A stretch of DNA of 57,387 nt from the NCBI GenBank assembly GCA_034927595.1, contig JAYFPQ010000085.1, forward strand, positions 1-57,387, given 5' to 3'. Below, piece after piece: positions 29,952 through 50,140 of the stretch (positions are counted from its first letter, which is position 1; every line of letters starts with the position of its first letter). The stretch comes from Christensenella sp. Its GTDB lineage: Bacteria; Bacillota; Clostridia; Christensenellales; CAG-138. Made by a program: the position numbers and the translations under genes. A model generated the notes under the pieces. That model saw only the letters and a list, made by a program, of their open reading frames with translations, was not told the origin of the DNA and searched no databases.

Positions 29952-30902
29952 TCAGTTGGTATCCGCGCAGAGCGGGCCGGCCAGTTCCTGCATGAAGAAC
30001 AGCTTGCCCGGCATGGTCGGGATAAAGCTGGAGGTGATGCAGGTGGTTGGGCCATAGCGAAGCGTCATCCAGAAGGACATACCCTGCCACTGCATGCCGC
30101 GCGCGAACACGCCGTCCGCTCCGCCGATGATGTAGTCGGACTGGAAGATGATGCCCGGGCCAATTGTATTGGCGTAGCAGGGGATCAGCGCGTAGTTGCT
30201 GCGAAAGCTCGTCAACGCGTTCTGCTCAATCGTCAGCGGATGCAGGCGCGCGCCAACACGATGGGTCGCGGCCATCCAGTCGGCCTGGGTTGCATAGTCC
30301 TTGGCAAAGTGCGGTTCCCAGAACGCAATGTGGCAAACCCGGCCAATGCCGAACACCAGCACCTGCTTGGCGCCCTTTTCCTTGAGTGCGGCAATCTGCT
30401 CGGCATAGCGCGGCAGTTCGTCGCGCGTGGCAAAGTGCCGCTGCGATTCCGGAACGGTCAGCTCGCCAAGCGGCCCGTAGAACGCGCCGAGCATTGCGTT
30501 TTGAAACGCGGCGGGATCGCTCGCGGGCAGCGTGTTGCCCTGCTCGTCGGACCACTCGTCCATGTTGAACCCGTGCACGTGTTTGCAGTCCACGTTCCAT
30601 TCCTTCAGGAAGTACACGGCCCACTTATACATGCCCATCGGCCCGACCGGAAGAATCAGAATCAAATCGTGCTTTGCTTCCTTGGCCAGCCGAATCTGCC
30701 AGGCGATCTCGTGTCCCATATACGCGCCGAACTCTTCGAGATTCTCGCAGGATACCGGGCGAAAATCCTTGTTCCAGAACGGCTGGGGCTGCAATACGTC
30801 CTCGGGTTTGTTGGAGCAACAGTCGCGAATTCGGGCGATATCCCAACCGGCGGGGAATATCGTTTCGAAGTACGAACCGTGCAGCGTGCTTAACATGTCC
30901 AT
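29952..30902 (-). CDS. Divergent glucosamine-6-phosphate isomerase/deaminase (NagB-like)
   Basis: LPVGP, FNMDEW, FGIGRVCHIAFWEP, ANTIGP; GAGGAGG before ATG 30902. Confidence 0.8.
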   Translation of the reverse strand: MDMLSTLHGSYFETIFPAGWDIARIRDCCSNKPEDVLQPQPFWNKDFRPVSCENLEEFGAYMGHEIAWQIRLAKEAKHDLILILPVGPMGMYKWAVYFLKEWNVDCKHVHGFNMDEWSDEQGNTLPASDPAAFQNAMLGAFYGPLGELTVPESQRHFATRDELPRYAEQIAALKEKGAKQVLVFGIGRVCHIAFWEPHFAKDYATQADWMAATHRVGARLHPLTIEQNALTSFRSNYALIPCYANTIGPGIIFQSDYIIGGADGVFARGMQWQGMSFWMTLRYGPTTCITSSFIPTMPGKLFFMQELAGPLCADTN

Positions 30903-30992
30903 GGCAGAGGCCTCCTCGTTTTTTTGAATATTGGAGTAAGCGGCGCGAATGTCCGCGTGGGGTTGACGAAACGCGAAGAATGGAATAAATAA

Positions 30993-31013
30993 TAATGTCA
31001 CTGGAGGAATTAA
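30993..31013. promoter_or_regulatory. Candidate ROK operator (copy 1)
   Basis: TAATGTCACTGGAGGAATTAA, similar to 38777..38797. Confidence 0.55.
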
Positions 31014-31017
31014 TCGT

Positions 31018-31046
31018 ATTATGAGCGCTAATATCCGGTTTGTCAA
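31018..31046 (-). promoter_or_regulatory. sigma70/SigA-like promoter for NagB-like gene
   Basis: Minus strand TTGACA-N17-CATAAT. Confidence 0.65.
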
Positions 31047-31177
31047 CGTTTTTTGAAGAAGCAAAAATGCAACGTCAAGCGAACCCACTCTTGACGGCGC
31101 CTATGCCTGCGGTTAGAATGAACACGCACGAGTTCGATTGGACGTTTAAAAAATCCGCATCGGAGGGCAAAATCTGC

Positions 31178-32533: not shown

Positions 32534-32561
32534 TTCGACGAACTTGAAACGAGAGCGACAA

Positions 32562-32671: not shown

Positions 32672-33904
32672 TCAGGACTGCTCGTTTTTAAAGATTTCGT
32701 CCATACTCATCATGACGGCGGAGCGGCGGAGTGTCTCAAAATCGCCGGAAGACGCTTCAATTGCGACGTCCTGCGCATGGAGCAAGCGAAACTGACTGTG
32801 AATCGTCTTTCGCACCATGTCGAGGAAGCCTTCGCCGAGCATGGTGATGGAGCCGCCAATGTGAATCACGTGGACGTCGTAGAGGTTGATCGCGCTGACC
32901 AGCCCGCAGCAGAGCGCATAGACATAGTCGTTCAAGACCTCCAGAACCGCCGGTTCGTGCGCGAGGAAGCGCGTGGCCACTTCGCGCATGGCGATTTCGT
33001 TGATCTGCGCGGCAAAGCAGTCGTTGTAGGTCAGGTGAAGTCCGGCGCGTTCGTTCAGCGCGCGAAACAGCGCGGCGGTGGAACAGATGCTCTCGAGGCA
33101 GCCGCGGTTGGAGCAGCGGCACATCGGTCCGTTACGGTCCACGATGATATGGCCGATCTCCAACGAAAAGCACTGCGCGGGGTCCTTGTGCGCGTCGCCC
33201 AACACAACGCCGGCGCTGATGCCTTCGTCAATGTTGATGGCCAGCACGCGCTTTCCGGGGGAGTAGTCGTCCGAACTGTACTCCATAAACGCGAGTACGC
33301 TCGTGTTGTTGCTCATGAGCACGCGCGAGTCGGGGAATTTTTCACGCAGCTGCGCAACCAGATCCGCCTCGGTGAGTTCCTCGGCGGGAATGACGGCAGA
33401 AAACTGGATGCAGCCGGTTTCCGCGTCGAAGATGCCGGGAAAGATCACGTGAATTCCGATCAGTCGATACATGGGTATACGTTTTGCCTTGAGCAGCTTC
33501 TTGATCTCCGCGGAGATCTGCTCGCTCGTATGCGTAGCTCCGTGAATGCGAACGCTGCCGAGCTTACGGAAGCAAATGTCGTAAAGCGAACAGATGAAGC
33601 TGTGGCTGATGATTTCTACCGTCGCAATGCAGCCGCCCGCCGCGTTGACCTCGAGCATAATCGGCTTTCGCCCGCGCATGGTGGACGCGCCTGCGCCCGT
33701 TTCGCGAATCCATTTGTTCTGAATCAGCTCGTCCACGAGCATGGAGACGGTGGTTGGCGAAAGATTGGTTTGGGTTGCCAGCGTCGCGCGCGAAGTAGGC
33801 ATTGTCTTGCGAATGATATTAAAGAGCAGCATGGTGTTGCTCGCTTTAATCTTTTGCTGCGAGAAGTTCGTCGGTGCTTTATCGGCGACGATTGGATGAA
33901 TCAT
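32672..33904 (-). CDS. ROK-family transcriptional regulator
   Basis: SRATLATQTNLSPTTVS HTH, GRKP, EIGH, CRCSNRGCLE. Confidence 0.92.
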   Translation of the reverse strand: MIHPIVADKAPTNFSQQKIKASNTMLLFNIIRKTMPTSRATLATQTNLSPTTVSMLVDELIQNKWIRETGAGASTMRGRKPIMLEVNAAGGCIATVEIISHSFICSLYDICFRKLGSVRIHGATHTSEQISAEIKKLLKAKRIPMYRLIGIHVIFPGIFDAETGCIQFSAVIPAEELTEADLVAQLREKFPDSRVLMSNNTSVLAFMEYSSDDYSPGKRVLAINIDEGISAGVVLGDAHKDPAQCFSLEIGHIIVDRNGPMCRCSNRGCLESICSTAALFRALNERAGLHLTYNDCFAAQINEIAMREVATRFLAHEPAVLEVLNDYVYALCCGLVSAINLYDVHVIHIGGSITMLGEGFLDMVRKTIHSQFRLLHAQDVAIEASSGDFETLRRSAVMMSMDEIFKNEQS

Positions 33905-34664
33905 AGGAACACCTCATTGCTTTTGCAGAATACAGATTACTCCATCGCACGAAATAATAATTGTGACATATGTTGTTAGTATTCTAGCATCAACAAAGGG
34001 CTTCTGGCAAGCGGCGCGTGGAAAAGCTTTTACCGGAAATCACGCAAATACGTCCTCTTTGCTGGTGGGCAAAACCGCCAATCGCGCTGCGGGACTGCGC
34101 GGATATCGCATCAAACCGCCGTTTCAGCCCAAAACGACGGGAAAATTGGCGTTTCTCGTTCAAAATTTGAAATTCGAATGGAAAAATTGCAATAAAAATA
34201 ATTCAGCGAAAAAAATAAAACAAGTTATAATACGAAATATGTCAATAAAAAGCCAGTAATATAGCACATAATAATAGTCCAAGAATATTATTAAAAAATG
34301 CAAAACACAAGAAATGCAAAATTTTATATTGATTTTTGAATATGGGTATTGTATCATGACATCAATCGAACTGCGATGCAGCACGCAAAGGCGCATGCAC
34401 GTATCAACTGGAAATATTCTCGTAAATCCTTAAAAAACATTCGGCATCGAAATCCAATTATCAGCAAACCGCGAAAACCAACGATCCCGCAAGCATTGCC
34501 GCGACGAACCGTAACATTGTTGTTACCCGCAATCGTGCAGCAAGTAGTTTTCGTTGCGTTTACAAAACCCCTCAAGCACAAAGCGGTCAAGCGCGAGCCC
34601 AAACAAACCGGTGATACAACATCAATACTGGTATGGTAAAACCGCCATCAAAGGAGTGAAAGCG

Positions 34665-35669
34665 ATGAGTGACCCCTGCGTATCCAAAGTGAGTTATTCC
34701 AATTCCGATTTTGCGAAAAAGGTATCCAATTTTACAAAAGAGAATATGGCGATCGTGGCGATTGTTCTAATGAGCGTTGTCTTCTCTTTTACGTCGCCCT
34801 ATTTCCTCTCCTGGGAGAACTGGAAGAACATCCTGCTTCAAACCTCTACGGTGTCCATTGCGGCCATGGGGCAGGCGATCGTTCTACTCACCGGTAACTT
34901 CGACCTGTCGCTCGGGCGCAACGTCGCATTCACCAGTTGTCTGGGCGCGGTTCTAATGAAAGGGCTCACCGCTGGTGCAGCGCAGATGAATCCGTGGCTT
35001 GCAATCGTCATCATGCTGCTGGCCGGAACGGCGATTGGCCTTGCCAACGGCGTGCTCACGGCGTATGCCGGTCTGCCGGCGTTTATCGCTACGCTGGGCT
35101 TGCAGAACATCTGCTACGGTATGGCGAAGGTCATTACAAACGCTACGCCGATTGCAACCTTCTCCGATCAGATTGCGTTCTTCGGCCGCGGCTATCTCGG
35201 CCCGATTCCGTACTGCGTCATCATCATGATTGCCCTGTATGTTGTAGCACAGTTTCTTTCGACCAAAACCCGGCTGGGCCGGAACATCTACGCGGTTGGC
35301 GGAAGCAAGGAAGCCGCGTTCTTCTCCGGCATCGACGTGAAGAAGTATACGTGCCTCGCGTTCGTCATCGCGGGATTGCTCGCTTCGTTCAGCGGCGTTG
35401 TGCTGATGAGCCGGTTGAACTCCGTCGCCATTACGAACGGCCAGAACTACGAGTTCGACGCGGTCATTGGTTCCATCATCGGCGGCATCAGCCTCGCGGG
35501 CGGCAAGGGCAAGATCATTGGCACCATGTTCGGTTCCATCTTCCTCATTACGCTGTTCAACGGCATGGCACAGATGCACGTAGACCCGTTCGTACAGGAC
35601 GTTCTTAAGGGCGTTGTACTGCTCGCGGCCATCGGTCTGGACGTGCTGCGCAACCGGAAACGCGCTTAA
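34665..35669 (+). CDS. Monosaccharide (RbsC-like) ABC permease
   Basis: FDLSLG, LPAFIATLG, YAVGGSKEAAFFSGI, YEFDAVIGSIIGG; AAGGAG RBS. Confidence 0.92.
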   Translation: MSDPCVSKVSYSNSDFAKKVSNFTKENMAIVAIVLMSVVFSFTSPYFLSWENWKNILLQTSTVSIAAMGQAIVLLTGNFDLSLGRNVAFTSCLGAVLMKGLTAGAAQMNPWLAIVIMLLAGTAIGLANGVLTAYAGLPAFIATLGLQNICYGMAKVITNATPIATFSDQIAFFGRGYLGPIPYCVIIMIALYVVAQFLSTKTRLGRNIYAVGGSKEAAFFSGIDVKKYTCLAFVIAGLLASFSGVVLMSRLNSVAITNGQNYEFDAVIGSIIGGISLAGGKGKIIGTMFGSIFLITLFNGMAQMHVDPFVQDVLKGVVLLAAIGLDVLRNRKRA

Positions 35670-35710
35670 TGGCGACGTTTTCTGAAGATCAAGAAAGGGC
35701 TGACAGCACG

Positions 35711-37192
35711 ATGGAGAAAGACTACATCCTGAGTATAGAGGGAACAAGCAAGTGCTTTCCAGGTGTAAAAGCGCTTGACTCGGTATCCTTTCAAATCGAG
35801 CGCGGCACCATTCATGCGCTGGTTGGCGAGAATGGAGCCGGAAAGAGCACGCTGATTAAGATTCTGGCGGGCATCTATCATGCGGAGGAGGGGAAAGTTC
35901 TCCTCAACGGAAACTGCGTGGAGTTCCGCACGCCCCATGAATCCCGCGCGGCCGGCATCGCGGTTGTCCATCAGGAAGTGAAGCTCGCGGAACCGCTCTC
36001 CGTAACCGAGAATCTGTTCGTCGGAAACCTGATTATGCGCGGACGTCTCGTGGACTGGAAAGAGATGCGCCGCCGCGCGCTGGAGACCATTCAGAACCTC
36101 GGCGTGGAGATCGACGTCGACGCGCCGGTCGAGACGCTGACCGTTGCGAAGAAGCAGATCGTTGAGATTTGCCGCGCGGTCAACATGAACTGCAAACTCC
36201 TGATCATGGACGAGCCCTCGGCAACGCTGACCGATCGCGAGCTGGACATTATGTTCGGAATCGTAAAGAAGCTCCGCTCGGAAGGTATTACGATCATCTA
36301 CATTTCGCATCGTCTGGACGAGGTGTTCAATCTGGCGGACAACGTTACCGTTCTGCGGGACGGCAAGCATGTTGCAACGCAGCCGGTTGCGGACGTCTCG
36401 CGCGAAAAGCTGATCTCGCTGATGGTTGGCCGCGAACTCGGACAGGAGTATCCCAAGATTGCCGCGGCGACCGGCGACGTAATCCTCGACGTAAAGAACC
36501 TCTGCCGCAGGGGCGTGCTGCACGACATCAGCTTTTCGGTTCGAAAAGGCGAGGTGCTCGGCATCTCCGGTCTGGTCGGCGCGGGACGCACCGAACTTGC
36601 GCGCGCCATATTGGGCATTGACCGAATCGACTCCGGCGAAATCTTCGTTCGCGGGAAAAAGGTGCATTATCGGTCCTTCCGTGAGGCGATTCACGACGGA
36701 TTGGGCTTGATTCCGGAGGATCGTAAGCTGCAGGGTTTGGTGCAGGTTTTCTCCGTAAAGCGCAACATCTGCATGGTGAGCCTCGATAAAATCATTCGCC
36801 ATGGCATTGTGCGCGAGAAACTCGAGACGAAGTATGCGGAGGAATACTCTAAGAAACTGCGCGTTGCAACGCCGACGCTGGACACCCAGGTGCAGTATCT
36901 CTCCGGCGGAAATCAGCAGAAGGTCGTCGTTGCAAAGTGGCTGCTCCAGAACAGCGATATTCTGTTTCTGGACGAGCCGACGCGCGGCATCGACGTTGGC
37001 GCGAAGGCGGAAATCTACGGGCTCATCAATGTGCTCGTGGAGCAGGGTAGAACCGTCATTATGATCTCGTCTGAAATGCCGGAGATTCTGGGCATGTGCG
37101 ACCGCATCGTCGTGCTGCACGAAGGCAAGAAGATGGGCGAACTGCTGCGCGAAGAGGCGACGCAGGAAAAGATCATGGCGCTCTGCGTATAA
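35711..37192 (+). CDS. Monosaccharide (RbsA-like) ABC ATP-binding protein
   Basis: GENGAGKST, MDEPS, LSGGNQQK, DEPTRGID. Confidence 0.93.
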   Translation: MEKDYILSIEGTSKCFPGVKALDSVSFQIERGTIHALVGENGAGKSTLIKILAGIYHAEEGKVLLNGNCVEFRTPHESRAAGIAVVHQEVKLAEPLSVTENLFVGNLIMRGRLVDWKEMRRRALETIQNLGVEIDVDAPVETLTVAKKQIVEICRAVNMNCKLLIMDEPSATLTDRELDIMFGIVKKLRSEGITIIYISHRLDEVFNLADNVTVLRDGKHVATQPVADVSREKLISLMVGRELGQEYPKIAAATGDVILDVKNLCRRGVLHDISFSVRKGEVLGISGLVGAGRTELARAILGIDRIDSGEIFVRGKKVHYRSFREAIHDGLGLIPEDRKLQGLVQVFSVKRNICMVSLDKIIRHGIVREKLETKYAEEYSKKLRVATPTLDTQVQYLSGGNQQKVVVAKWLLQNSDILFLDEPTRGIDVGAKAEIYGLINVLVEQGRTVIMISSEMPEILGMCDRIVVLHEGKKMGELLREEATQEKIMALCV

Positions 37193-37219: not shown

Positions 37220-37332
37220 TACGGATTTAACGGGGAACGGTGAAAGCCAAAACATCAAGGAGGAGTCCCTACCTCCAAAAAACATACGGATTTAACGGGA
37301 AACTGTTAAAAATAAAACATCAAGGAGGAGTC
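37220..37332 (+). repeat. Tandem 48-bp imperfect direct repeat containing the SBP ribosome-binding site
   Basis: TACGGATTTAACGGG...AAAACATCAAGGAGGAGTC at 37220-37267 and 37285-37332. Confidence 0.85.
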
Positions 37333-37338
37333 TCTAAC

Positions 37339-38388
37339 ATGAAGAAGTTTCTGTCCATGCTGCTGGTAGCGATGCTTGCGATCTCCATTTTCGGTTGTGC
37401 GGCACCCGCCGCCGTGGCCCCCGCCGCGGAAGAACCCGCCGCCGCCGCAACGGAAGCCCCCGCTGCCGAAGCAGCCGCCGAAGCCCCTGCCGCGGATGCG
37501 AGCAAACCGCTGGCCGGCCTCAAAATCGGCAATACCATCGTCTACAAGGGTGACGTATGGTGTGCTCTGCTGGCTGAGGAATTCGAAAAGCAGGCTACCG
37601 CGCTTGGCGCCGAAATCACCGTGGAAGACGGCGACCTGAACGCAGAGACGCAGTCCAAGCAGATCGAAAACATGATCGCGCGTGACGTGGATGTTATCTT
37701 CGCCGATCCCGCGACGTTTGACGGCTGCACCGCGGCCTTCGAAAAGGCAACGGCCGCCGGCATCCCGGTGTTCACCTACGACAGCGCGCCTTCCTATGAA
37801 GGCATTGTCACCCACACCGGTTGGGACAACGTGGAAACCGGCAAGATGGTTGGCGACTACGTACTGGAATGGGTCAAGACCAACATGGCGGACAAACTCC
37901 CGGCGCGCATCATCCTGCTGGGCAACTATGCTTCCGAGCACTGCATTACGCGTGAAGACGCCTTCATGGAAGTTGTCAACGCCAATCCGGATGCACTGAC
38001 CGTCATCTCCCGCCAGGATTGCGAAGGCAACCGTGAAAAGGGCGCGAATGCCGTTACCAACATCGTGGAACCGTTTGACATCGTCGTGAGCGTTGTGGAC
38101 AACGGCGCGTGGGGCGCGGTTTCCGCAATCGAAGCGCGCGGCCTGACCGGCGTCAAAGTGTTCTGCATGGGCGCATACGGCGACGAACCGTTCCGCGCGC
38201 TGCGCGATTCACACCCGATCTACGAAGCCTGCCTCATTGTTGATCCGGCCGCGATTGCCCGAATCACGCTGGACAGCTACGCGAAGTATGTGCAGGGTCA
38301 GACCGAGTTTGAAAAGATCACCAACATCCCGCTCTACATCTGCAACACCGAGAACATTGCGGACTTCTACTCGTTCCCGAACGGCTAA
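37339..38388 (+). CDS. Sugar ABC substrate-binding lipoprotein (periplasmic-binding class I)
   Basis: Lipobox IFGC, Ala/Pro/Glu linker, QSKQIENMIARDVDVI, GIPVFTYD, GWDN. Confidence 0.9.
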   Translation: MKKFLSMLLVAMLAISIFGCAAPAAVAPAAEEPAAAATEAPAAEAAAEAPAADASKPLAGLKIGNTIVYKGDVWCALLAEEFEKQATALGAEITVEDGDLNAETQSKQIENMIARDVDVIFADPATFDGCTAAFEKATAAGIPVFTYDSAPSYEGIVTHTGWDNVETGKMVGDYVLEWVKTNMADKLPARIILLGNYASEHCITREDAFMEVVNANPDALTVISRQDCEGNREKGANAVTNIVEPFDIVVSVVDNGAWGAVSAIEARGLTGVKVFCMGAYGDEPFRALRDSHPIYEACLIVDPAAIARITLDSYAKYVQGQTEFEKITNIPLYICNTENIADFYSFPNG

Positions 38389-38415
38389 GGTACGCAAGCG
38401 ATCAAACGGAACATG

Positions 38416-38449
38416 CCCGCGAAGGAACCGAAACCGGTTCCTTCGCGGG
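38416..38449 (+). terminator. 15-bp stem-loop after SBP gene
   Basis: CCCGCGAAGGAACCG-AAAC-CGGTTCCTTCGCGGG; no clear U tract. Confidence 0.6.
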
Positions 38450-38797: not shown

Positions 38798-38815
38798 ATA
38801 ACAGGGAGCGAAAAC

Positions 38816-40093
38816 ATGAAACAGCCGAACGAGCAATTGGTAATGAATGCCGCGGGTATCCTCGAGCTTGGATTCCCGATGTGGCCGCAGTTTGCGCCGG
38901 AAACGCCGCAGGACGTTGCGGATATTCTCAAGAGCGGACTGGTCAACTACTGGACCGGCAAGAAGGGCATGGAGTTTGAAGAACAGTTCCGCGCGTGGTC
39001 CGGAGCAAAGATGGCGATTTCCTGCACGAACGGAACAGCGGCGCTGCACATTGGCCTGGCAAGCCTTGGCATTGGGCCCGGGGACGAGGTGTTGGTGCCT
39101 TCCTACTCGTTTATCGCTTCTTCCTTCTCCATCGTGCAGGCTGGGGCAATCCCCGTGTTCTGTGACGTGACGGAGGATCACACCGTGGATCCGGACGACA
39201 TCGAGCGTAAGATTACACCGCGCACGAAGGGCATCGTCTGCGTCCATCTCTACGGCGTGGTGTGCGACATGGCGCGCATTCTGGACATTGCCAAGCGGCA
39301 TCATCTGTACGTGATCGAAGACGCGGCGCAGTGCATTGGCGGCAAGTTCAACGGCAAGATGGTTGGCACGATTGGCGACGTCGGCTGCTTCAGCTTCTGC
39401 CAGTCGAAACACTTCACGACGGGCGGCGAGGGCGGCATGGTGCTGACCAACGACGAGAACATCGGCTGGGAAGCCCGCTCGTTCCGCGACCACGGCTACG
39501 ACGTCAAGAAGCGCATGAACATGCTAGCGCTGGAGGAAAAGCTGCCATACATCCACACCCGCGTGGGCTTTAACTACCGCATGACGGAGATGCAGTCCAT
39601 GATTGGCATCAACGAGATGAAGCGGTTCGACAGCTGGAACCTGCCGCGCAGACTGCAATACGCAAAGATGTATGACGAAGCGTTTCAGGGGTTAAAAGGC
39701 ATTGCGAAGTTGCCGGTCAACACGGCGGAACGACAGAATTCCTACTGGTGGTATCCCATTACGCTGAATCTGGACGAGCTGACGACGGACGCGCAGGGCA
39801 TTTTACACGCGCTGCACGAGGAGAAGATTCCGTGCTACGGAATCCAGTGGCCGGAGGCCTATGAGGAGCGCGCGTACAAGGAACTGAACGGCTTTGGCAC
39901 GGCGCAGTTCCCCTTCCACTCGAAGGAGTATACGGCGCAGGGGCTGAGCTACGAACAGGTGCTCTGCCCGGTTGCAAAGTCGCTGCGCGCGAGAACGGTC
40001 AATCTCTTCCTCCACCCAACGTGGGACGAAGTACATATCCGCCGGGTGATTGAGGCGTTTACCGCGGTGCTTTCCGCGCATACAAAAGCGTAA
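38816..40093 (+). CDS. DegT/DnrJ/EryC1/StrS PLP aminotransferase
   Basis: NGTAALH, GPGDEV, IEDAAQ, SFCQSKHFTTGGEGG, GFNYRM. Confidence 0.93.
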   Translation: MKQPNEQLVMNAAGILELGFPMWPQFAPETPQDVADILKSGLVNYWTGKKGMEFEEQFRAWSGAKMAISCTNGTAALHIGLASLGIGPGDEVLVPSYSFIASSFSIVQAGAIPVFCDVTEDHTVDPDDIERKITPRTKGIVCVHLYGVVCDMARILDIAKRHHLYVIEDAAQCIGGKFNGKMVGTIGDVGCFSFCQSKHFTTGGEGGMVLTNDENIGWEARSFRDHGYDVKKRMNMLALEEKLPYIHTRVGFNYRMTEMQSMIGINEMKRFDSWNLPRRLQYAKMYDEAFQGLKGIAKLPVNTAERQNSYWWYPITLNLDELTTDAQGILHALHEEKIPCYGIQWPEAYEERAYKELNGFGTAQFPFHSKEYTAQGLSYEQVLCPVAKSLRARTVNLFLHPTWDEVHIRRVIEAFTAVLSAHTKA

Positions 40094-40101
40094 TTATTCG
40101 G

Positions 40102-40149
40102 GCGCCGGTCTGCGCACAGGGGATGGACCGGCGCTCTCCTCCCTTTTTT
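40102..40149 (+). terminator. Possible internal terminator/attenuator
   Basis: GCGCCGGTC...GACCGGCGC then CT-rich tail and TTTTTT. Confidence 0.4.
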
Positions 40150-40169
40150 GACGGTTAGGAGAACATAAG

Positions 40170-41222
40170 ATGGCAGAACAGAAAAAAGTACGTTGGGGCG
40201 TCATCGGCGCCGGTGGCATTGCAGATCGAAGGACGATTCCCGGCATGATGCTGGCGAACAATGCCGAGCTCGTAGCGGTGATGGAGATTGACCTGCAGCA
40301 GGCGAACCGGCTGAAGGAGAAGTACGGCGCAAAGCGCGCCTACGACTCGGAGGCGGAGCTGCTGGCGGATTCCGAGGTGGACGCGGTCTACATTGCGTCT
40401 CCGGTGGTACTGCACGCCAAGCAGGCGAAGATGGCCGCGGACGCAGGCAAGCACATTTTAATCGAGAAACCGCTCGCCATGACCAGCGCGGAAGGACAGG
40501 AAGTGCTGGACTACTGCAGCGCGCGCGGCATTTTGATTGCGGCGGGGCTGATGATGCGCTTCGGCGCGAATGTGATGGCGATGCGCGAGGCCGTTCAGTC
40601 GGGACAAATTGGCGCGGTCGTTTCCGGCTTTGCGCAGTTCACCTGCTGGTACCCGGATATTCCCGGCAACTGGCGCCAGCAAAAGAGCACCGCGGGCGGC
40701 GGGTCGCTGATGGACATGGGCGTGCACTGCATCGACCTGATTCAGTACGCCACCGACAGCAAGGTCAAACAGGTTGCGGGATTTCACGATACGCTGACGT
40801 TTGGCTACGAGGTGGAGGATTCCTCCAGCGTACTGCTGCGATTGGAAAACGGCGCAATGTGCACCGTACAGTCGAACTTCAACATTCCGGACGAAGCGGC
40901 CAAGTGGCGGCTGGAGTTCTTTGGAACGCGCGGACGCCTGCTGGGCGATTCAGTCATCGGTCAAGTGGACGGCGGCAGCGTGGACGCAATGTTCCTTGCG
41001 GACGTCGGCGGTTACGACGCGGCGCAGGACGGCAAGGAAGCGCAAAAGACGATGCTCAACGCTACACTTGGCAACATGTATACGCGCGAGATCGAGAGCT
41101 TTGGCGAATCGCTGCTCAAAGGAACGCCGCTCACGGTTCCGGCTTCGGAGGCGGTGCAGGTGCAGCGCGTGATTGAGGCGGCGTATCGTTCCTGCGAGGA
41201 GAAGCGGATCATCGATCTGTAA
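40170..41222 (+). CDS. Gfo/Idh/MocA NAD(P)-dependent oxidoreductase
   Basis: GVIGAGGIA, GKHILIEKP, GGGSLMDMGVH. Confidence 0.93.
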   Translation: MAEQKKVRWGVIGAGGIADRRTIPGMMLANNAELVAVMEIDLQQANRLKEKYGAKRAYDSEAELLADSEVDAVYIASPVVLHAKQAKMAADAGKHILIEKPLAMTSAEGQEVLDYCSARGILIAAGLMMRFGANVMAMREAVQSGQIGAVVSGFAQFTCWYPDIPGNWRQQKSTAGGGSLMDMGVHCIDLIQYATDSKVKQVAGFHDTLTFGYEVEDSSSVLLRLENGAMCTVQSNFNIPDEAAKWRLEFFGTRGRLLGDSVIGQVDGGSVDAMFLADVGGYDAAQDGKEAQKTMLNATLGNMYTREIESFGESLLKGTPLTVPASEAVQVQRVIEAAYRSCEEKRIIDL

Positions 41223-41245
41223 ACGAAATCAAACGGGAGGCACCG

Positions 41246-42088
41246 ATGAAGAAGAGCATCAATTTCTGGTCGTTTGCCGCGGGCACCACGGTTGCGGAAG
41301 CAATCCGGCTCGCGAAGGACGCCGGTTTTGCGGGAATCGAACTCTCCATGGGCGAAGTGGGGCTGATGGGGCTGCCAACCGCGGACGCGGCGAAGACGGC
41401 GCGGAGCATTGCCGAGAGCGAAGGCATTGCGCTGCCCAGCCTTGCCTGCGGGCTGTGCTGGGACGCGCTGTTGACCAGCGCGATTGAAAAGAAGCGCGTT
41501 GAGGCGAAGGACATGATCCGCCGTCAGGTGGATCTGGCGGCCGAGCTCGGCGCGGACAGCATACTCGTGATTCCCGGCGCGGTCGGCGTGGATTTTTTGA
41601 ACGGAAACGAGAACCTGCTGCCCTATGACGAAGCATACGACGCCGCGCTGGAAGGCATTCTGGAGCTGACGCCCCATGCGGAGCAGGCGCGCGTGAATCT
41701 GGCGCTGGAGAACGTTTGGAACAAGTTTTTGCTCTCGCCGCTCGAGCTGCGGGACTTTATCGACAAGATCGGCTCCGATTATGTCGGCAGTTACTTCGAT
41801 GTTGGCAACGTGGTACTGACGGGCTATCCGGAGCAATGGGTGCGAATCTTGGGCAAACGGATCAAGAAGGTGCACTTTAAAGATTATCGGCGCAACCCCG
41901 GCGGGTTCAACTGCTTTTGCGATCTGCTGTCGGGCGATGTGGACTATCCCGCCGTCGTCGAGGCGCTCGAGGCGGTTGGTTACGACGACTATTGCGCGGC
42001 GGAGATGATTCCGAACTATCGGCACTACACCAGCCAAACGATCTACAACGCGTCCAAATCGATGGACCGGATTTTAAACAAAGCCTAG
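41246..42088 (+). CDS. Sugar-phosphate isomerase/epimerase (xylose-isomerase-like TIM barrel)
   Basis: GFAGIEL, LENVWN, YFDVGN, VHFKD, AEM. Confidence 0.9.
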   Translation: MKKSINFWSFAAGTTVAEAIRLAKDAGFAGIELSMGEVGLMGLPTADAAKTARSIAESEGIALPSLACGLCWDALLTSAIEKKRVEAKDMIRRQVDLAAELGADSILVIPGAVGVDFLNGNENLLPYDEAYDAALEGILELTPHAEQARVNLALENVWNKFLLSPLELRDFIDKIGSDYVGSYFDVGNVVLTGYPEQWVRILGKRIKKVHFKDYRRNPGGFNCFCDLLSGDVDYPAVVEALEAVGYDDYCAAEMIPNYRHYTSQTIYNASKSMDRILNKA

Positions 42089-42166
42089 GTCATAAGGCTG
42101 CATATTTCATTTCGACGAATCGAATTGTTGAAAAGTTTAATCGCAGAGAACAGAAAGAGGTAGCGA

Positions 42167-43174
42167 ATGGCACGCATTGGAATCATTGGTGCGGGATTTA
42201 TGGGCACCGCGCACTCGGCGGCGATTCTGAAGTCAACGAAGCATACCCTCGTCGGCATTGCGGACATCGACCGCAAGAAGGGCGAAGCGCTCGCGAACGA
42301 ACGCGGCTGCAAGTATTTTTCGACGGCAGAGGAACTGCTCGCGCAGCCGGATATCGACATCGTCCACATCTGCCTGCCGACCAATCTGCACTGCGCCTAT
42401 ATTCAGAAGGCCGCGGCGGCCGGGAAACACGTGCTCTGCGAAAAGCCGTTTTCGCTGCACGACAGCGAGATTGCCGCGGCAATCGACGCGGCCAAGGCAA
42501 ACAATGTCAAGCTTATGATCGCGCAGGTGGTGCGCTTCTGGCCGGAAAACGTCGTCATCAAGCAACACAAAGAAAGCGGCGCGTTGGGCGAAATCAAGAT
42601 GTGCAGCGCGCACCGGCTGGCGCAGATTCCCGCCTGGGCGGACTGGTATCGCAATCCGGAAATCAGCGGCGGCGGGCTGTTTGACCTGCATACGCACGAC
42701 ATTGACAACATGATCGACCTGTTTGGCGCCTGCACGGAGGTCTACTCAATTGGAGCCAAGCGGGACGGTTGCTGGAACTATATGTCGACCTCGTTGACGT
42801 TTTCGAGCGGCAAGAAGAGCATTGTGGAATCCAGCCTGAATATGCCGGGCGATTATCCGTTTTCCACGTCGTTCCGCCTGCTGGGCGAGCGCGCCTGCAT
42901 TGAGCAGACCATGCGCGCCGGCGCGAATCTGGACGATATGTCCAACAGCGTTCGAACGCTCAAGCTCTACGAAGACGGGAAACCTTGCGTTAATGTGCCT
43001 TATGAGGCATACGACGCGTACTGGTGCGAAATTGAGCACTTTGCGGGCTGCGTGGATCAGGGCGTTGCCCCGCGCATTTCGCCGGAGGAGTCGCGAAACG
43101 TCATGCGCGTGATCCGCGCAATCGAAGCTTCGCTCGCAAGCGGCGAGGTCGTGCCGACCGGCTGGGTCGACTGA
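42167..43174 (+). CDS. Gfo/Idh/MocA NAD(P)-dependent oxidoreductase
   Basis: GIIGAGFMG, GKHVLCEKP, SGGGLFDLHTHDID. Confidence 0.93.
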   Translation: MARIGIIGAGFMGTAHSAAILKSTKHTLVGIADIDRKKGEALANERGCKYFSTAEELLAQPDIDIVHICLPTNLHCAYIQKAAAAGKHVLCEKPFSLHDSEIAAAIDAAKANNVKLMIAQVVRFWPENVVIKQHKESGALGEIKMCSAHRLAQIPAWADWYRNPEISGGGLFDLHTHDIDNMIDLFGACTEVYSIGAKRDGCWNYMSTSLTFSSGKKSIVESSLNMPGDYPFSTSFRLLGERACIEQTMRAGANLDDMSNSVRTLKLYEDGKPCVNVPYEAYDAYWCEIEHFAGCVDQGVAPRISPEESRNVMRVIRAIEASLASGEVVPTGWVD

Positions 43175-43178
43175 GCGA

Positions 43179-43781
43179 ATGCAGCGCAGTTACGCGGTTT
43201 CAAGCTGCGAAGGCACGCCGAACTGGGAAACGATTCCCGCGGCGCAGATCGACGAGGCGCAATGGCTGCCCAACCCCGGCGTTGCGGCCTGGGCGCAGGT
43301 CTGCGCTGCGGCAGACGCGCTGTACGTTCGCCTGTTTGCGCGCGAGGCGGAACCGCTAGCCCGGTTTACGGGCGAAACGGACATGATCTGCCTTGACAGC
43401 TGCCTGGAATTCTTCTTTTGCCCGTTGCCGGACGATACGCGTTATTTCAATTTTGAGTTCAATCCAAACGGCGCGCTCTATCTGGGATTTGGACACGATC
43501 GCTACGACAGCGTTCGTCAGCTCGTGCCGCGCGCGGGTTCGTTTTTTTGCGTCGAACAGCTCAAGCAGGGCGACGTTTGGGGAATCGGCTTTCGCATTCC
43601 ATATGCGTTTATCCGGCTCTATGCGCCAGAATTTACGCTGCGCCCCGGCCTGCGGCTGCGTGGGAATTTTTATCATTGCGGTGAGGAAACGCGCGTCCCG
43701 CGCTATCTTTCCTGGAACCGCATTCATTGTGAGACACCGGAGTTTCACCAGCCCTCAGATTTTGGTTGGCTGGTTTTTTAG
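43179..43781 (+). CDS. Carbohydrate-binding family 9-like protein
   Basis: DSCLEFF, YFNFEFNPNG, RGNFYHCG, LSW...PEFHQPSDFG. Confidence 0.8.
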   Translation: MQRSYAVSSCEGTPNWETIPAAQIDEAQWLPNPGVAAWAQVCAAADALYVRLFAREAEPLARFTGETDMICLDSCLEFFFCPLPDDTRYFNFEFNPNGALYLGFGHDRYDSVRQLVPRAGSFFCVEQLKQGDVWGIGFRIPYAFIRLYAPEFTLRPGLRLRGNFYHCGEETRVPRYLSWNRIHCETPEFHQPSDFGWLVF

Positions 43782-43794
43782 GAGGATTTGACTT

Positions 43795-44964
43795 GTGAGG
43801 ACGACCCTGTACAACGGACAGGTGATTACCCCGCTCGTGGTACGCCGCGGCGGAGTGGTGGTGGAAGATGGCAGAATTCTGCGCGTTTTTGAAGGCGATG
43901 ACTTTGAGCGGACCGGAGAGTTGATCGACTGCCGCGAACAGTTCATTTCACCGGGATTTGTCGACATCCATACGCACGGCATTTTCAACGGCGACACGAT
44001 GGATGCAACGCCGGAGGCGCTGCATCGCATTACGCGCCTGCATGCCCAGCATGGCACGACCAGCCTGCTGCCGACGACGCTCTCGCGCGGGCACGACGAA
44101 ATTCTGCGCGCGCTAAAGAACATCTGCGTTTGCAGCGAGCTGCCGCCGGATGGCGCGCGGATTCTCGGCGCGCATCTGGAGGGAAACTATTTTTCGCCCA
44201 AGATGGCGGGCGCGCAGAACCCGGCCTACTTGTATCCGCCAGTTGAACAGGACTACATGGAGTATGTGAAAACCGGTTGCGTTGTCCGCGTTGCGGCGGC
44301 GCCGGAGCTGCCCGGCGCGCTGAAGATGGCGGAACAGCTGGTGCCGCTCGGCATTCAGCTTTCCATTGGGCACTCAAACGGCACGCCGCAGGACGTTCAG
44401 AACGCGATTGCCGTCGGGTATTCCTCTCTGACGCATATCTTTAATGCACAGTCCGCGCTGACCAGCGTGTTTGTCTACCCCGAGGCGGGCGTTTGCGAGT
44501 CTGCACTATTGCACGATGAGCTGCGCGTTGAGTGCATTTGCGACGGAAACCATCTCTCGCCAACACTGCTGAAGCTGATTTACAAGATCAAGGGTGCGGA
44601 CGGCATGATTGGCATTACGGATGCCGTGTATGCCGGCGCGGCGGACGGCGACTACAACATGGGCGGCCTCGACGTAGAGGTAAAAAACAACATCTGCATT
44701 CTCAAGAACCAGAGCGCGTTTGCGGGCAGCATTGCGACAATGGATCTTTGTGTGCGGACGCTGCATCACAAAGCAGGCATTCCGATTCAGGACGCGGTGT
44801 CGATTTGTTCCTATACCCCGGCAAAGGTCATTGGCCGGCAGAACAGCATTGGCATGCTGCACCCGAGATTTGATGCGGATATCAACGTGTTCGATTCTGA
44901 GATCAACATTCTCTATACGATGGTTCAGGGAAAGTCGTTCCAAAACAAGCTGGCGAATGCTTGA
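43795..44964 (+). CDS. nagA: N-acetylglucosamine-6-phosphate deacetylase-like amidohydrolase
   Basis: PGFVDIHTHG, HGTT, HLEG, APE, GHS, THIFN, DGNH, ITDA, AGS; GTG start with GGAGG. Confidence 0.85.
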   Translation: MRTTLYNGQVITPLVVRRGGVVVEDGRILRVFEGDDFERTGELIDCREQFISPGFVDIHTHGIFNGDTMDATPEALHRITRLHAQHGTTSLLPTTLSRGHDEILRALKNICVCSELPPDGARILGAHLEGNYFSPKMAGAQNPAYLYPPVEQDYMEYVKTGCVVRVAAAPELPGALKMAEQLVPLGIQLSIGHSNGTPQDVQNAIAVGYSSLTHIFNAQSALTSVFVYPEAGVCESALLHDELRVECICDGNHLSPTLLKLIYKIKGADGMIGITDAVYAGAADGDYNMGGLDVEVKNNICILKNQSAFAGSIATMDLCVRTLHHKAGIPIQDAVSICSYTPAKVIGRQNSIGMLHPRFDADINVFDSEINILYTMVQGKSFQNKLANA

Positions 44965-45009
44965 TCCGTTGAGTCGAAAGAATACATTCGAGTGAGAGAA
45001 GGCGGGCGC

Positions 45010-46326
45010 ATGAAGAAGAAGAATGATTCGGATTTTCGCTACAACACCGGTGAAACGCGCGTTCCATGGGCGGCAGTCGGCGAAAACTACAACGCGCTGG
45101 ATACCTTGGAGGTCATCCGGTTTCTGATGCAGGGGGAAGGCGAGGATTACGAAGCGGCGTTCCAATCGGTCAGAGAGACCATTCACCGACTGGATGCCGT
45201 GTCCAGCCCGCCGGGCAAACTCTCGCTGGACGCGCAGGTGGCGCGCGCGGAGGCGCTCTGCGACGCGTATCTGCAAACCAGCGGATGCGTGTTTGTGACC
45301 AACGCAACGGCCGGATTCGAGATTGCCTACAAATACGCGAACATCGGCCCCGGAGACGAGGTGATTGTTCCGGCAATCACGTTTATCGCAACCATGGCAT
45401 ATCCGCTCTCCGTTGGGGCAAAGCTGGTGTTTGCGGACGTTGACCCCGTTACGCTGAACATGGACCCCGCAGATGTGGCAAGAAAGATCACCCCGCGCAC
45501 GAAGATGATTGTTCCGGTGCACATTGGCGGCTATCCGGTGGACATGGACCCGATCATGGAACTGGCGCGTGAGCACGATCTCATCGTGCTGGAGGACGCG
45601 GCGCACGCGTTTGGCGCGGAATATAAGGGACGCAAAGTTGGAACCATTGGCCATTTCGGCGCGTTCAGCTTCCACGAGGTAAAAAACATTACCTCGTTCG
45701 GCGAGGGCGGCATTCTGACCACCAGCATCGAGAGCTTTCGGCCGGAGATGCGGCGCGCGCGGTTTCTGGGGCTGGACTTCTCGAAGCAGATTAAGGACTG
45801 GCTCTACGATGTTTCCCCGATTTCCGGAAAATACGGCCCATTCGTGGCGGGCAACCACTCCACAACCGAGATTCAGGCGCTCGGGCTTGCGCGGCAGGTG
45901 GGGCGCGTGGACGAGATCATCGCCGCCCGGCGCGCGGCTTCCGCGTATCTGACGGAGCGTCTTTCGGCCGACCCCGCGATTACTCCGCAGGATTTGGGCA
46001 GCGCGGCGATCAAACCGACGTTTCACCTCTATCGCATGCTGATCGATCCTTCGCAGGCAGGCGCAGACGTACAGGTGCTCAAGCGAAAACTCGCACAGAA
46101 GGGCGTCACGACGATTCCGCACTTTGGCCCGCTCTACCGTTTTCAGGTGGCGGCGACCTTCGGGTACAACGGGGACGAAATTGCGAAAACCTGCCCCGTT
46201 TGCGAAGAGGTGTTTCACCATCGCTTTACGCATTTCCCGATCTATGGGCTCTCGCAGGATCAGCTGACCTTTATGGCGGACGCGATTCTGGAGTCGCTTG
46301 CCGAGATGCGGCGCGAGGCAAAGTAG
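45010..46326 (+). CDS. DegT/DnrJ/EryC1/StrS PLP aminotransferase
   Basis: GPGDEVIVPAITFIAT, VHIGG, LEDAAHAFG, SFHEVKNITSFGEGG. Confidence 0.92.
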   Translation: MKKKNDSDFRYNTGETRVPWAAVGENYNALDTLEVIRFLMQGEGEDYEAAFQSVRETIHRLDAVSSPPGKLSLDAQVARAEALCDAYLQTSGCVFVTNATAGFEIAYKYANIGPGDEVIVPAITFIATMAYPLSVGAKLVFADVDPVTLNMDPADVARKITPRTKMIVPVHIGGYPVDMDPIMELAREHDLIVLEDAAHAFGAEYKGRKVGTIGHFGAFSFHEVKNITSFGEGGILTTSIESFRPEMRRARFLGLDFSKQIKDWLYDVSPISGKYGPFVAGNHSTTEIQALGLARQVGRVDEIIAARRAASAYLTERLSADPAITPQDLGSAAIKPTFHLYRMLIDPSQAGADVQVLKRKLAQKGVTTIPHFGPLYRFQVAATFGYNGDEIAKTCPVCEEVFHHRFTHFPIYGLSQDQLTFMADAILESLAEMRREAK

Positions 46327-46365
46327 CGCGCTGTTTGAAGCAGCTCTATCAAAAGTGAATCAGAC

Positions 46366-46392
46366 GAGCGCATCGGGAAGATGCGCTCCTTT
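46366..46392 (+). terminator. Stem-loop / probable terminator
   Basis: GAGCGCATC...GATGCGCTC then CTTT. Confidence 0.55.
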
Positions 46393-46424
46393 GATATTTC
46401 GCGAAGAGAGGGTATACTAACCCT

Positions 46425-47309
46425 ATGGATTCAATCTTAATCATTGGCGGAAATGGCTTTCTGGGGTCGCACCTCGCGGCGCGCGCAGGAATGCTTGGCA
46501 TGCGCGTCAGCGTGGTTGGAACGGCGCAGCGCTCCGCGGTGCCAAACGCGGCATACCATCGCGCAGACATCGGCGATCGAAGCGCGATGCAGGCCGTGTT
46601 TCAAGCGGTCTCGCCGCGCTATGTCGTGAATGCGGCGGCGATTGCGGACATTGACTATGCCGAGCAGCACTCGGAGGAAGCGCTGCGCGTGAATGCACAC
46701 GGCGCGGAGATCTGCGCTCTACTGGCGGCGCAGTACCATGCCCGGCACCTGTTCTTCTCGTCGGACGCGGTGTTTGACGGAACAAAAGAGACCTATTCGG
46801 AGGACGACGCGACGAACCCTTGCAACTATTACGGAAGAACCAAGGAGCTCGCGGAGCAGAAAGTCGCGTTGGCTCATCCGGACGCGGTGATTGCGCGGGT
46901 GTCGCTGCTGCTCGGACGAAGCAGCGGAAACTCCGGCGTGGTCGATCCGCTGATGCGCAGGCTGGAGGCGGGGGATATCGCGTTTAGCAACAGCGACCAG
47001 ATTCGCACGCCGATCGACATTTATACGTTGGCAGATGCTACGTTTGAGTTGCTGGCACGGCAAGAGTGCTCCGGCCTCATTCATCTGGCGTGCACCGAGG
47101 CGGCAAGCAAGCTGGAGATTTGCCGGGACATCGCGCGAGGATGCGGATACGATCCGGAACGTGTGCAGCCCTACCCGGAGGGAAGTACGCGGGGAGCCAA
47201 GCGCCATTTAAACGGCGTGCTAAGCGTAGAGAAGGCGGCGCGTATATTGAAACAGACGCATATGCCAACGTTGGAGGGAACCATCGAGCGCGCGATGCAG
47301 GGCAGATAA
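46425..47309 (+). CDS. Extended SDR, RmlD-like NAD(P)-dependent reductase
   Basis: GGNGFLG, NAAA, SSDAVFDG, YGRTK. Confidence 0.88.
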   Translation: MDSILIIGGNGFLGSHLAARAGMLGMRVSVVGTAQRSAVPNAAYHRADIGDRSAMQAVFQAVSPRYVVNAAAIADIDYAEQHSEEALRVNAHGAEICALLAAQYHARHLFFSSDAVFDGTKETYSEDDATNPCNYYGRTKELAEQKVALAHPDAVIARVSLLLGRSSGNSGVVDPLMRRLEAGDIAFSNSDQIRTPIDIYTLADATFELLARQECSGLIHLACTEAASKLEICRDIARGCGYDPERVQPYPEGSTRGAKRHLNGVLSVEKAARILKQTHMPTLEGTIERAMQGR

Positions 47310-50127: not shown

Positions 50128-50140
50128 AGGGGACAACCTC

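Follow-up and report, generated by a model that had tools for sequence, protein, structure and literature searches.

A conserved DegT/Gfo gene cluster in a Christensenella genome with a putative role in phosphate-independent catabolism of N-acetylated amino sugars

Does a gene cluster that joins sugar aminotransferases to a sugar importer build amino sugars or break them down? The question is raised by positions 29952-47309 of a 57,387-nucleotide stretch of Christensenella sp. DNA (contig JAYFPQ010000085.1 of assembly GCA_034927595.1, the whole of which is called the window here). This cluster includes two DegT-family aminotransferases (DegT1 and DegT2), two Gfo/Idh/MocA oxidoreductases (Gfo1 and Gfo2), a CUT2 importer, a ROK protein and relatives of the hexosamine enzymes NagA and NagB. 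All the parts belong to known families, and their arrangement appears to resemble a hexosamine catabolic operon to which a Gfo/DegT module, known only from biosynthesis, has been added. The interpretation that we favor, and consider fairly probable from the gene content and its comparison with related loci, is that of an inducible locus for the non-phosphorylative catabolism of an imported N-acetyl amino sugar. The substrate probably carries two amino groups, as a di-N-acetylated diamino hexose would.

Listing of the open reading frames, together with Pfam and NCBIfam scans, showed 14 genes in at least five transcription units (Table 1). The other open reading frames of at least 100 amino acids in the span were only antisense frames of these genes, without family matches. 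The gene inventory of an original prediction, made from the letters of the window alone, was thereby reproduced in full, coordinates included. Its remark that nucleotidyltransferase, glycosyltransferase, flippase and kinase genes are missing also held, as no such family was matched by the scanned cluster proteins in Pfam or NCBIfam. Neither an acetyltransferase nor a phosphatase was found in the cluster with Pfam, and no phosphotransferase system (PTS) is encoded in it. The solute-binding protein (SBP) of the importer has a lipoprotein signal, and the cluster enzymes have no signal peptide. The genome holding the window (3.2 Mb in 165 contigs, 91.8% complete, the window being contig 21) has a second NagA (285.4 bits), a canonical 241-amino-acid NagB and three 320-amino-acid ROK kinases on other contigs. 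Because these housekeeping genes are separate, the cluster is taken to be distinct from the housekeeping route for N-acetylglucosamine (GlcNAc).

Six other contigs (L016-L021) carry the block that runs from the NagB-like to the NagA-like gene with its order unchanged, the encoded proteins being 49-100% identical. L016 and L017 are near-identical to the window, and in L018-L021 the same order of 13 genes is kept at 49-81% identity. This recurring order shows that the grouping of the genes is beyond chance. The membership of the RmlD-like gene at the end of the cluster is doubtful, since among the related loci it was present only in L016 and L017, and since a terminator-like hairpin (46366-46388) and a promoter-like site (46391-46418) lie between it and DegT2.

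Gene order also bears on the idea that the span holds no single pathway and only brings unrelated sugar operons side by side in a sugar-rich region. The window is rich in sugar loci to either side of the cluster, the transcription units are several, the numbers of promoter-like and terminator-like sites in a consensus scan were not above the shuffled expectation, and in a genus relative (G013) the importer, ceramidase-like and CBM9-like genes occur but DegT and Gfo do not. However, the 13-gene order is maintained in L018-L021, members of these families are found in other combinations around DegT1 in distant taxa, and an operator-like 16-mer is common to two promoter regions of the cluster, which makes a chance juxtaposition highly improbable.

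The absence of a kinase directs attention to the two hexosamine-type enzymes. The NagA-like amidohydrolase scored below the cut-off of the PRK11170 model (163.7 against 483 bits). Its motif FVYPEAG, found in the window and in L018, aligns with FLHRAPG of three housekeeping-type NagAs, with Tyr-Pro at the position of the His-Arg pair. In a study of NagA (PMC6016474), the invariant Arg and the adjacent His are described as binding the 6-phosphate, a change of that Arg as abolishing activity, and the enzyme as inactive on GlcNAc. Compared with that account, the NagA-like protein lacks the phosphate-binding His-Arg pair.

The NagB-like protein scored below the TIGR00502 cut-off of 236.9 bits, had no PF01182 match at E<=0.001, and matched E. 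coli NagB at 1.5e-5. Three residues that we take to be catalytic are retained: Asp in MDEW, and His and Glu in GIGRxCHIAFWEP, motifs whose aligned counterparts in E. coli NagB are MDEY and GHIAFNEP. In place of the canonical TG(S/G)T it has PVGPMG, two residues shorter than E. coli NagB, and QWQ occurs at the position of the GxxKA Lys. In the Atlas, the protein corresponds to clusters of 936 and 4431 members named putative glucosamine 6-phosphate (GlcN6P) isomerase. From its sequence, it can be regarded as a deaminase/isomerase of a distinct NagB subfamily. The lack of a phosphate grip in both hexosamine enzymes, together with the lack of an encoded kinase or PTS, points to unphosphorylated substrates, and the lost phosphate-binding residues, which the original prediction had not noticed, would in turn explain the missing kinase. 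What the cluster has in common with the canonical GlcNAc pathway is an amidohydrolase over a NagA cut-off, a NagC-like ROK repressor and a member of the NagB superfamily in which the Asp, His and Glu are kept. In contrast to that pathway, it has no kinase or PTS, no NagA His-Arg pincer and no NagB TGxT loop and Lys, and adds two aminotransferases and two oxidoreductases.

A Schiff-base Lys characterizes the aminotransferases of the DegT family, and a His its dehydratase members. The Lys motif is present as SFCQSKHFTTGGEGG in DegT1 and SFHEVKNITSFGEGG in DegT2, and because it is kept both proteins are predicted to be aminotransferases and not His-type dehydratases. The best NCBIfam models for DegT1 were PseC (230.9 bits against a cut-off of 423.5) and the LegC family (216.2 against 420), and for DegT2 PRK11706 (193.1 against 375). 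Neither protein reached the cut-off of a named nucleotide diphosphate-sugar aminotransferase equivalog (PseC, LegC family, WecE, ArnB, DesI). The best solved relative of DegT1 was 7l7x (1.7e-74), which we take to be a Psychrobacter diacetamido-sugar enzyme, the others including perosamine synthetases, KdnA, 2-deoxy-scyllo-inosose aminotransferases, WbpE and NtdA; several of the solved relatives use substrates without a nucleotide. For DegT2 the best was 8gyh (3e-50).

The company that DegT1 keeps in other genomes was analyzed in a scan of one genome per species, in which 163 of 192 candidate stretches were confirmed and the best 80 (68-100% identity) were kept. Neighbors were counted in 77 loci, excluding L016 and L017, which are near-identical to the window, and L046, where DegT1 was missed by the gene caller. 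Genes were called with our own heuristic, which penalizes C at codon position 1, families were grouped by BLASTP, and family labels come from Pfam on one representative each. Since only 48 loci have at least four called genes on both sides of DegT1, all counts are lower bounds.

A Gfo1 gene was present in 52 of the 77 loci, directly adjoining DegT1 in 38, and a ROK gene in 30; DegT1, Gfo1 and the ROK repressor constitute the core cassette. Three kinds of N-deacylase accompany the DegT1 relatives, and an N-deacylase of any family was found in 40 loci. Ceramidase-like proteins were present in 32, PIG-L proteins in 23 and NagA-like proteins in nine (4 + 5). A labeled transporter (CUT2 ABC, MFS, amino-acid permease or NhaC type) occurred in 24 loci and the NagB-like gene in 19 (61-80% identity). 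Less frequent were short-chain dehydrogenases/reductases (SDR, 13), Gfo2 (12), the TIM barrel (11), aldo-keto reductases (11), the CBM9-like protein (8), dihydrodipicolinate synthase (DHDPS)-type enzymes (8), glycoside hydrolases of family GH20 (7, with a strong GH20 in one further locus, L077) and DegT2 (6, 65-72% identity). Within three genes of DegT1 there were 126 other neighbor families, the commonest being a TIM barrel (4), AraC (4) and GH123 (3). Nucleotidyltransferases, glycosyltransferases, flippases, acetyltransferases and phosphatases were not among the 25 commonest of them. Because importers, deacylases, a deaminase and hexosaminidases surround the DegT and Gfo genes, the simplest reading would be a chemistry on the free sugar that runs from amine to ketone to alcohol.

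The oxidoreductases are compatible with more than one ring position. The best solved relatives of Gfo1 were the 1,5-anhydro-D-fructose reductases 4koa (6.1e-36) and 2glx (1.8e-34), a moderate likeness only; that enzyme reduces a sugar ring ketone at C2, and we know of no aminotransferase partner for it. An attack at C2 would fit this 2-ketoreductase likeness and the GH20 and GH123 company, while an attack at C3 or C4 would agree with what the family is known to catalyze and with the presence of two aminotransferases next to a NagB-like protein for the 2-amine. Gfo2 had inositol 2-dehydrogenase (4hkt, 3.4e-25) and the DgpA 3-oxidases as best solved relatives, and those of the TIM-barrel protein were weak only.

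These likenesses could also be read as an oxidative-eliminative 3-keto-glycoside pathway of the DgpA/DgpBC or levoglucosan LgdA/LgdB type, in which a Gfo protein oxidizes C3, the TIM barrel eliminates the aglycone and the aminotransferases are accessory. Gfo1 and Gfo2 match the DgpA C-glycoside 3-oxidases (3.4e-27 and 1.5e-23), the Gfo proteins also match glucuronide 3-dehydrogenase and a levoglucosan dehydrogenase model, with none of these matches reaching its cut-off, and the TIM barrel and Gfo2 are paired in 11 to 12 of the 77 loci. However, the invariant core is DegT1 with Gfo1 and not the TIM barrel with Gfo2, the TIM barrel has no close solved relative, and two aminotransferases, two deacylases and the NagB-like protein would be left unexplained. 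CUT2 importers, moreover, presumably carry monosaccharides in most cases. We therefore regard this pathway as unlikely.

Slightly less likely still is a pathway that breaks down an aminocyclitol or a fragment of an aminoglycoside (inosamine, streptamine or 2-deoxystreptamine), in which DegT would convert an inosamine to an inosose and the Gfo and TIM-barrel enzymes would act like IolG, IolE and IolI. Among NCBIfam models, both Gfo proteins score best with that of inositol 2-dehydrogenase (IolG equivalog TIGR04380), at 149.4 bits for Gfo1 and 140.5 bits for Gfo2, below the cut-off of 355, and the closest solved relative of Gfo2 is of the same kind. Among the matches of DegT1 are 2-deoxy-scyllo-inosose aminotransferases (1e-48 to 6e-49) and a 'glutamine-scyllo-inositol transaminase' (2e-55), the TIM barrel has a weak IolE match (1.1e-6), and the CUT2 SBP relative 4irx is among the SBP matches. 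On the other hand, the nearer relatives of DegT1 are sugar enzymes (7l7x and the perosamine synthetases), the company is hexosamine-type (NagA-like, NagB-like, PIG-L, GH20, GH123), and the genome, 91.8% complete, has no IolB match and reaches at best 290.5 bits for IolD against a cut-off of 715. The rhizopine moc genes encode a MocA dehydrogenase, the MocB binding protein and the MocC TIM barrel; the cluster is set beside them by family only, as it also combines a Gfo/Idh/MocA protein, a CUT2 SBP and a xylose-isomerase-like TIM barrel. It differs from the moc locus in the dominance of hexosamine-type genes and in the lack of IolB, and of IolD over its cut-off, in the genome.

The original prediction had proposed the breakdown of an imported N-acyl amino compound under the control of a sugar-sensing repressor. 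Import, ROK control and catabolic direction are all supported by the company of DegT1. The aminocyclitols, rhizopine and aminoglycoside fragments that it had listed as substrates are disfavored by the hexosamine-type company, the lack of an IolB match and of an IolD over its cut-off, and the generic SBP, and a rare bacterial glycan sugar or diamino sugar is the best candidate left.

The ROK protein could be a sugar kinase or a regulator. It matched the NagC model at 1.3e-35, below the cut-off, has an N-terminal winged helix, keeps the CxCGxxGCLE (zinc/sugar) motif, and does not have the DxGGT kinase motif. The six DegT1-linked ROK proteins all have the winged helix, the zinc/sugar motif and no DxGGT, which in contrast is present only in the 322-amino-acid ROK kinase of the genome. 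The protein is accordingly assigned, by its motifs, as a transcription regulator and not a kinase. The importer has the features of the CUT2 class, namely a BPD_transp_2 permease, a tandem ATPase and a Peripla_BP_4 SBP with an export signal. Ribose-binding proteins were the best solved relatives of the SBP (2fn8, 2.5e-23), and its sequence is that of a generic monosaccharide-type CUT2 protein.

The AlphaFold model of the ceramidase-like protein (pLDDT 92.9) gave Foldseek matches to the neutral ceramidases 2zws (1.6e-28, TMq 0.72) and 4wgk (6e-26), the rest being noise. Its residues His88, His90, Glu376, Tyr406 and Tyr418 are invariant in 28 sequences, and a 601-amino-acid relative in L079 reached 41.3 bits on PF04734. 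The protein has in common with neutral ceramidase the catalytic-domain fold and the invariant His-x-His, Glu and Tyr. It differs in its length (451 amino acids against 630-670), in having no C-terminal domain or signal peptide and in its location in a sugar cluster; a lipid substrate is unlikely. It is presumed from the model to be a cytoplasmic amidohydrolase of neutral-ceramidase fold that acts as an N-deacylase.

Deacylation before phosphorylation has a parallel in the archaeal chitin route, where the PIG-L deacetylase Dac of Thermococcus acts on unphosphorylated GlcNAc sugars and is followed by a kinase and a GlcN-6-P deaminase. In both systems an N-acetyl sugar would be deacetylated before phosphorylation, as proposed here for the cluster, and PIG-L genes are frequent DegT1 neighbors. 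The two differ in the kinase and GlcN-6-P deaminase by which the archaeal route continues, and the window itself encodes no PIG-L protein.

The CBM9-like protein, which has no signal peptide and whose model (pLDDT 94) gave Foldseek matches to 4jpq (6.9e-14) and to the CBM9 modules 7nwo and 1i82, adjoins NagA in the window and in genus relatives. In L015 (8244-11974, genome G019) and also in L014, genes for NagA, a CBM9-like protein, an APH-family kinase and a canonical NagB stand in a row, and from these rows the free CBM9-fold protein can be considered a regular companion of NagA. In another genus relative (L011, G013:C9:18000-37900), the importer is orthologous at 47-68% identity, the ceramidase-like protein at 54% and the CBM9-like protein at 62%. 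The NagA-like, NagB-like and ROK proteins of that locus are other paralogues, a second ceramidase-like paralogue is present, and DegT, Gfo and kinase genes are absent.

From these data we infer the following course for the proposed catabolism of an N-acetylated diamino sugar, including its direction, order of steps, substrate and ring positions. The CUT2 importer and its lipoprotein SBP would take up a monosaccharide-sized substrate, with the ROK repressor sensing either the substrate or a product. In the cytoplasm, the ceramidase-fold protein, acting as a zinc amidase, and the NagA-like protein would remove the N-acyl groups from the unphosphorylated sugar. DegT1 and DegT2 would then transfer ring amino groups to a 2-oxo acid, giving keto-sugars whose ketones could be reduced to hydroxyls by Gfo1 and Gfo2, while the TIM-barrel enzyme may isomerize or epimerize an intermediate. 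The NagB-like protein would deaminate and isomerize a 2-amino aldose to a ketose and ammonia, and the neutral sugar would enter central metabolism through kinases encoded elsewhere. A di-N-acetylated diamino hexose fits this scheme because there are two deacylases, two aminotransferases and one 2-amine deaminase. A 6-deoxy diamino sugar has no site for a 6-phosphate, and with such a substrate the re-tooling of the NagA-like and NagB-like proteins would be accounted for.

Several points weigh against this interpretation. All the characterized DegT relatives found are biosynthetic, mostly acting on nucleotide sugars, and we know of no assay or ligand for any of the cluster's proteins. The NagA-like protein scored slightly above the curated cut-off for GlcNAc-6-P deacetylase (TIGR00221, 241.1 against 225.65 bits), and the phosphate-binding role of the NagB TG(S/G)T loop and Lys is one that we presume, a literature search having found no paper that confirms it. 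The promoter-like and terminator-like sites, as mentioned above, are no more numerous than in shuffled sequence. The neighbor counts themselves come from heuristic gene calls and from labels on single representatives, in many loci that end at contig edges. The original prediction had tied its catabolic direction to the presence of an importer in homologous clusters, and this is the case only in part: 53 of the 77 loci have no labeled transporter, and minimal ROK-DegT1-Gfo1 modules, many of them without one, stand amid housekeeping genes (DXP synthase, MiaB-like, glutamate dehydrogenase). For these modules a catabolic role is less obvious.

Some of the same points would suit biosynthesis or salvage of an amino sugar (a 3- or 4-amino sugar, kanosamine-like) from an imported or internal sugar, among them the biosynthetic role of the characterized relatives and the minimal modules without a nearby transporter. 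The pairs WbpB/WbpE and NtdC/NtdA, which presumably build amino sugars, combine Gfo and DegT as the cluster does by having both families adjacent, NtdA matches DegT1 at 9e-38, and an RmlD-like reductase lies at the cluster end. Biosynthetic Gfo and DegT pairs act on nucleotide- or phosphate-activated substrates and are located in glycan or antibiotic clusters. The pair described here, in contrast, has no activating enzyme, and is found with importers, deacylases, a deaminase, hexosaminidases and sugar repressors that suit breakdown. Besides, the RmlD-like gene does not accompany the cluster in its more distant copies, and nucleotidyltransferase, glycosyltransferase, flippase, acetyltransferase and phosphatase genes are missing both from the cluster and from the 25 commonest neighbor families. 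Biosynthesis is for these reasons considered very unlikely.

Within the catabolic interpretation, a more specific proposal is put forward only tentatively. It would be a laterally spread, phosphate-independent route for N-acetylated diamino sugars in anaerobes, in which DegT enzymes act catabolically on free sugars, the ceramidase-fold protein is a sugar N-deacylase and the NagA and NagB paralogues have been re-tooled for sugars unable to bear a 6-phosphate. Candidate substrates of such a route are 2,4-diacetamido-2,4,6-trideoxyhexoses derived from bacterial nonulosonic acids or glycans. Some Bacteroidales loci include a DHDPS-type lyase, and L072 combines it with a Kelch-motif protein, a GxDLY/SGNH esterase, an MFS transporter and a second DegT. 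Such a combination is reminiscent of sialic-acid loci, and by this analogy suggests that some Bacteroidales versions may start from nonulosonic acids.

In anaerobic habitats, carbon and nitrogen are supplied in large part by the amino sugars of mucins, chitin, peptidoglycan and bacterial surface glycans, and to our knowledge the only well-known routes for them pass through 6-phosphates. If the cassette acts as its gene content indicates, there would be a second logic, to deacylate, transaminate and reduce the free sugar, with nitrogen passing directly to glutamate. It would provide the first catabolic role for the large DegT family, and functions for three orphan families: the 316-amino-acid 'putative GlcN6P isomerases', the bacterial ceramidase-fold proteins and the free CBM9-fold proteins. 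Free-sugar aminotransferases and ketoreductases could be useful for enzymatic amino-sugar synthesis, and under the more specific proposal the Bacteroidales versions with a DHDPS-type enzyme would be the first catabolic loci for pseudaminic- or legionaminic-type acids. A full-text literature search, with subscription journals and supplements outside its scope, found neither a description of the cassette nor a DegT pathway in the catabolic direction, and no route by which pseudaminic or legionaminic acid is broken down.

The 77 further loci with DegT1 relatives (68-87% identity) belong to Clostridia and Bacteroidales. DegT1 is highly conserved, its best 120 database relatives being 71-100% identical. 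When 300 other genomes were drawn evenly from the phylum, only four had a relative (E<=1e-120), all at 55-56% identity. Close copies of the CBM9-like protein were present in 3 of 40 relatives' genomes. The cassette is rare, scattered and highly conserved, which may reflect lateral spread.

Near-identical DNA for positions 37240-46326 (27-58% of sampled words) was detected in groundwater, sludge and sediment metagenome runs from several studies, and by their record titles many of the related loci come from animal-gut assemblies. Three sludge metatranscriptome runs have contigs 95-99% identical to the SBP and DegT1 genes; contigs from RNA libraries are no proof of transcription, give no gene ranking or operon structure, and are uninformative on the cluster parts that they do not cover.

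Table 1. Genes and putative regulatory features of the cluster, with positions in the window
Feature	Positions	Strand	Evidence or remark
NagB-like, 316 aa	29952-30902	-	TIGR00502 45.2 bits; no Pfam match
Second copy of operator-like 16-mer	30997-31012		NagB-like/ceramidase-like divergent promoter region
Ceramidase-like amidohydrolase, 451 aa	31178-32533	+	PF04734 28.6 bits, cut-off 32.1; fold match
ROK regulator (NagC/Mlc-like)	32672-33904	-	PF00480 1.5e-31, 110.5 bits
CUT2 ABC permease	34665-35669	+	PF02653 (BPD_transp_2) 7.6e-39
CUT2 ABC double ATPase	35669-37192	+	PF00005 5.6e-54, two stretches
Lipoprotein SBP of CUT2 importer	37339-38388	+	PF13407 (Peripla_BP_4) 4e-38; lipoprotein signal
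Hairpin with 15-bp arms, possible terminator or attenuator between importer and enzyme genes	38416-38450	+	Script search
Operator-like 16-mer before DegT1	38781-38796	+	Just after promoter-like TTGACA..TATTAA
DegT1, putative pyridoxal-phosphate sugar aminotransferase	38816-40093	+	PF01041 6.7e-97, 325.4 bits, cut-off 19.8
Gfo1, Gfo/Idh/MocA oxidoreductase	40170-41222	+	Pfam domains over cut-off
TIM barrel, xylose-isomerase-like	41246-42088	+	PF01261 3e-39
Gfo2 oxidoreductase	42167-43174	+	PF01408 1.5e-28
CBM9_2-like, free-standing, cytoplasmic	43179-43781	+	PF16011 4.1e-29, 102.2 bits, cut-off 25
NagA-like amidohydrolase	43795-44964	+	TIGR00221 241.1 bits, cut-off 225.65
DegT2, second putative pyridoxal-phosphate sugar aminotransferase	44992-46326	+	PF01041 4.6e-76, 256.8 bits, cut-off 19.8
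RmlD-like SDR reductase	46425-47309	+	PF04321 7.1e-54, 183.3 bits, cut-off 27

The operator-like 16-mer has two matches with up to three mismatches in the window, against 0.12 expected; the copy at 30997 differs by two changes. The motif is conserved upstream of DegT1 in L018. When a simple spacer pattern was taken as the operator, it did not recur in L018-L035, and conservation was seen only in the L018 alignment. The shared 16-mer is weak evidence that the two promoter regions belong to one regulon. The hairpin between the importer and enzyme genes was not listed by the consensus terminator scan, which needs a T run. An AT-rich palindrome, TAATAATAGTCCAAGAATATTATTA, is located at 34269-34294 in the intergenic region between the ROK and permease genes, just upstream of a promoter-like site, and has TAGTCCA in common with the reverse complement of the 16-mer at 38781.

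Two candidate transport functions near DegT1 relatives were rejected. The proteins of 440-490 amino acids encoded after Gfo1 in minimal loci had been considered as transporters, and of the five scanned, two were MiaB-like radical SAM proteins; the other three had a weak GH67 N-terminal match, a DHHW/AlgX-like match and no Pfam match, respectively. Small proteins encoded upstream of DegT1, together with the downstream genes of some loci, had been considered as a mannose-type PTS, but Pfam gave a DHDPS-type enzyme, an aldo-keto reductase and an SDR, and no match for the small proteins.

The Bacteroidales locus L072 (832-20568) encodes DegT1, PIG-L and NagB-like proteins and a second DegT (32% identical), as well as a Kelch-motif protein, NagA, a Gfo-like protein that may carry a TAT signal, a GxDLY/SGNH esterase, an MFS transporter and an amino-acid permease. 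In 8 and 14 of the 80 loci, the gene directly upstream of DegT1 encodes one of two small Cys-rich proteins of ~150 amino acids (for example L071:9086-9550, L071:9517-9990 and L079:9531-9974). They had no Pfam match even at E<=1 and are absent from the window.

On both sides of the cluster, the window contains other loci related to sugar metabolism. A second sugar region (6964-22709) has its own CUT2 importer (SBP 6964-8079, ATPase 8145-9782, permease 9680-10834), an esterase, a second ROK gene (11802-13052), a phosphofructokinase-like gene, UxaC, UxaE, MFS_2, an SCP2-domain protein and GH2, and has the appearance of a glucuronide/uronate locus. Adjoining the cluster on its upstream side (24644-29637) are a class-I aldolase-like gene on the minus strand, a tocopherol-cyclase-like gene and a two-gene 2-oxoacid:ferredoxin oxidoreductase. 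The minus-strand genes at 47420-54401, which include two GH30, two CUT1 permeases, SBP_bac_1 and LacI, form a separate oligosaccharide locus convergent with the cluster.

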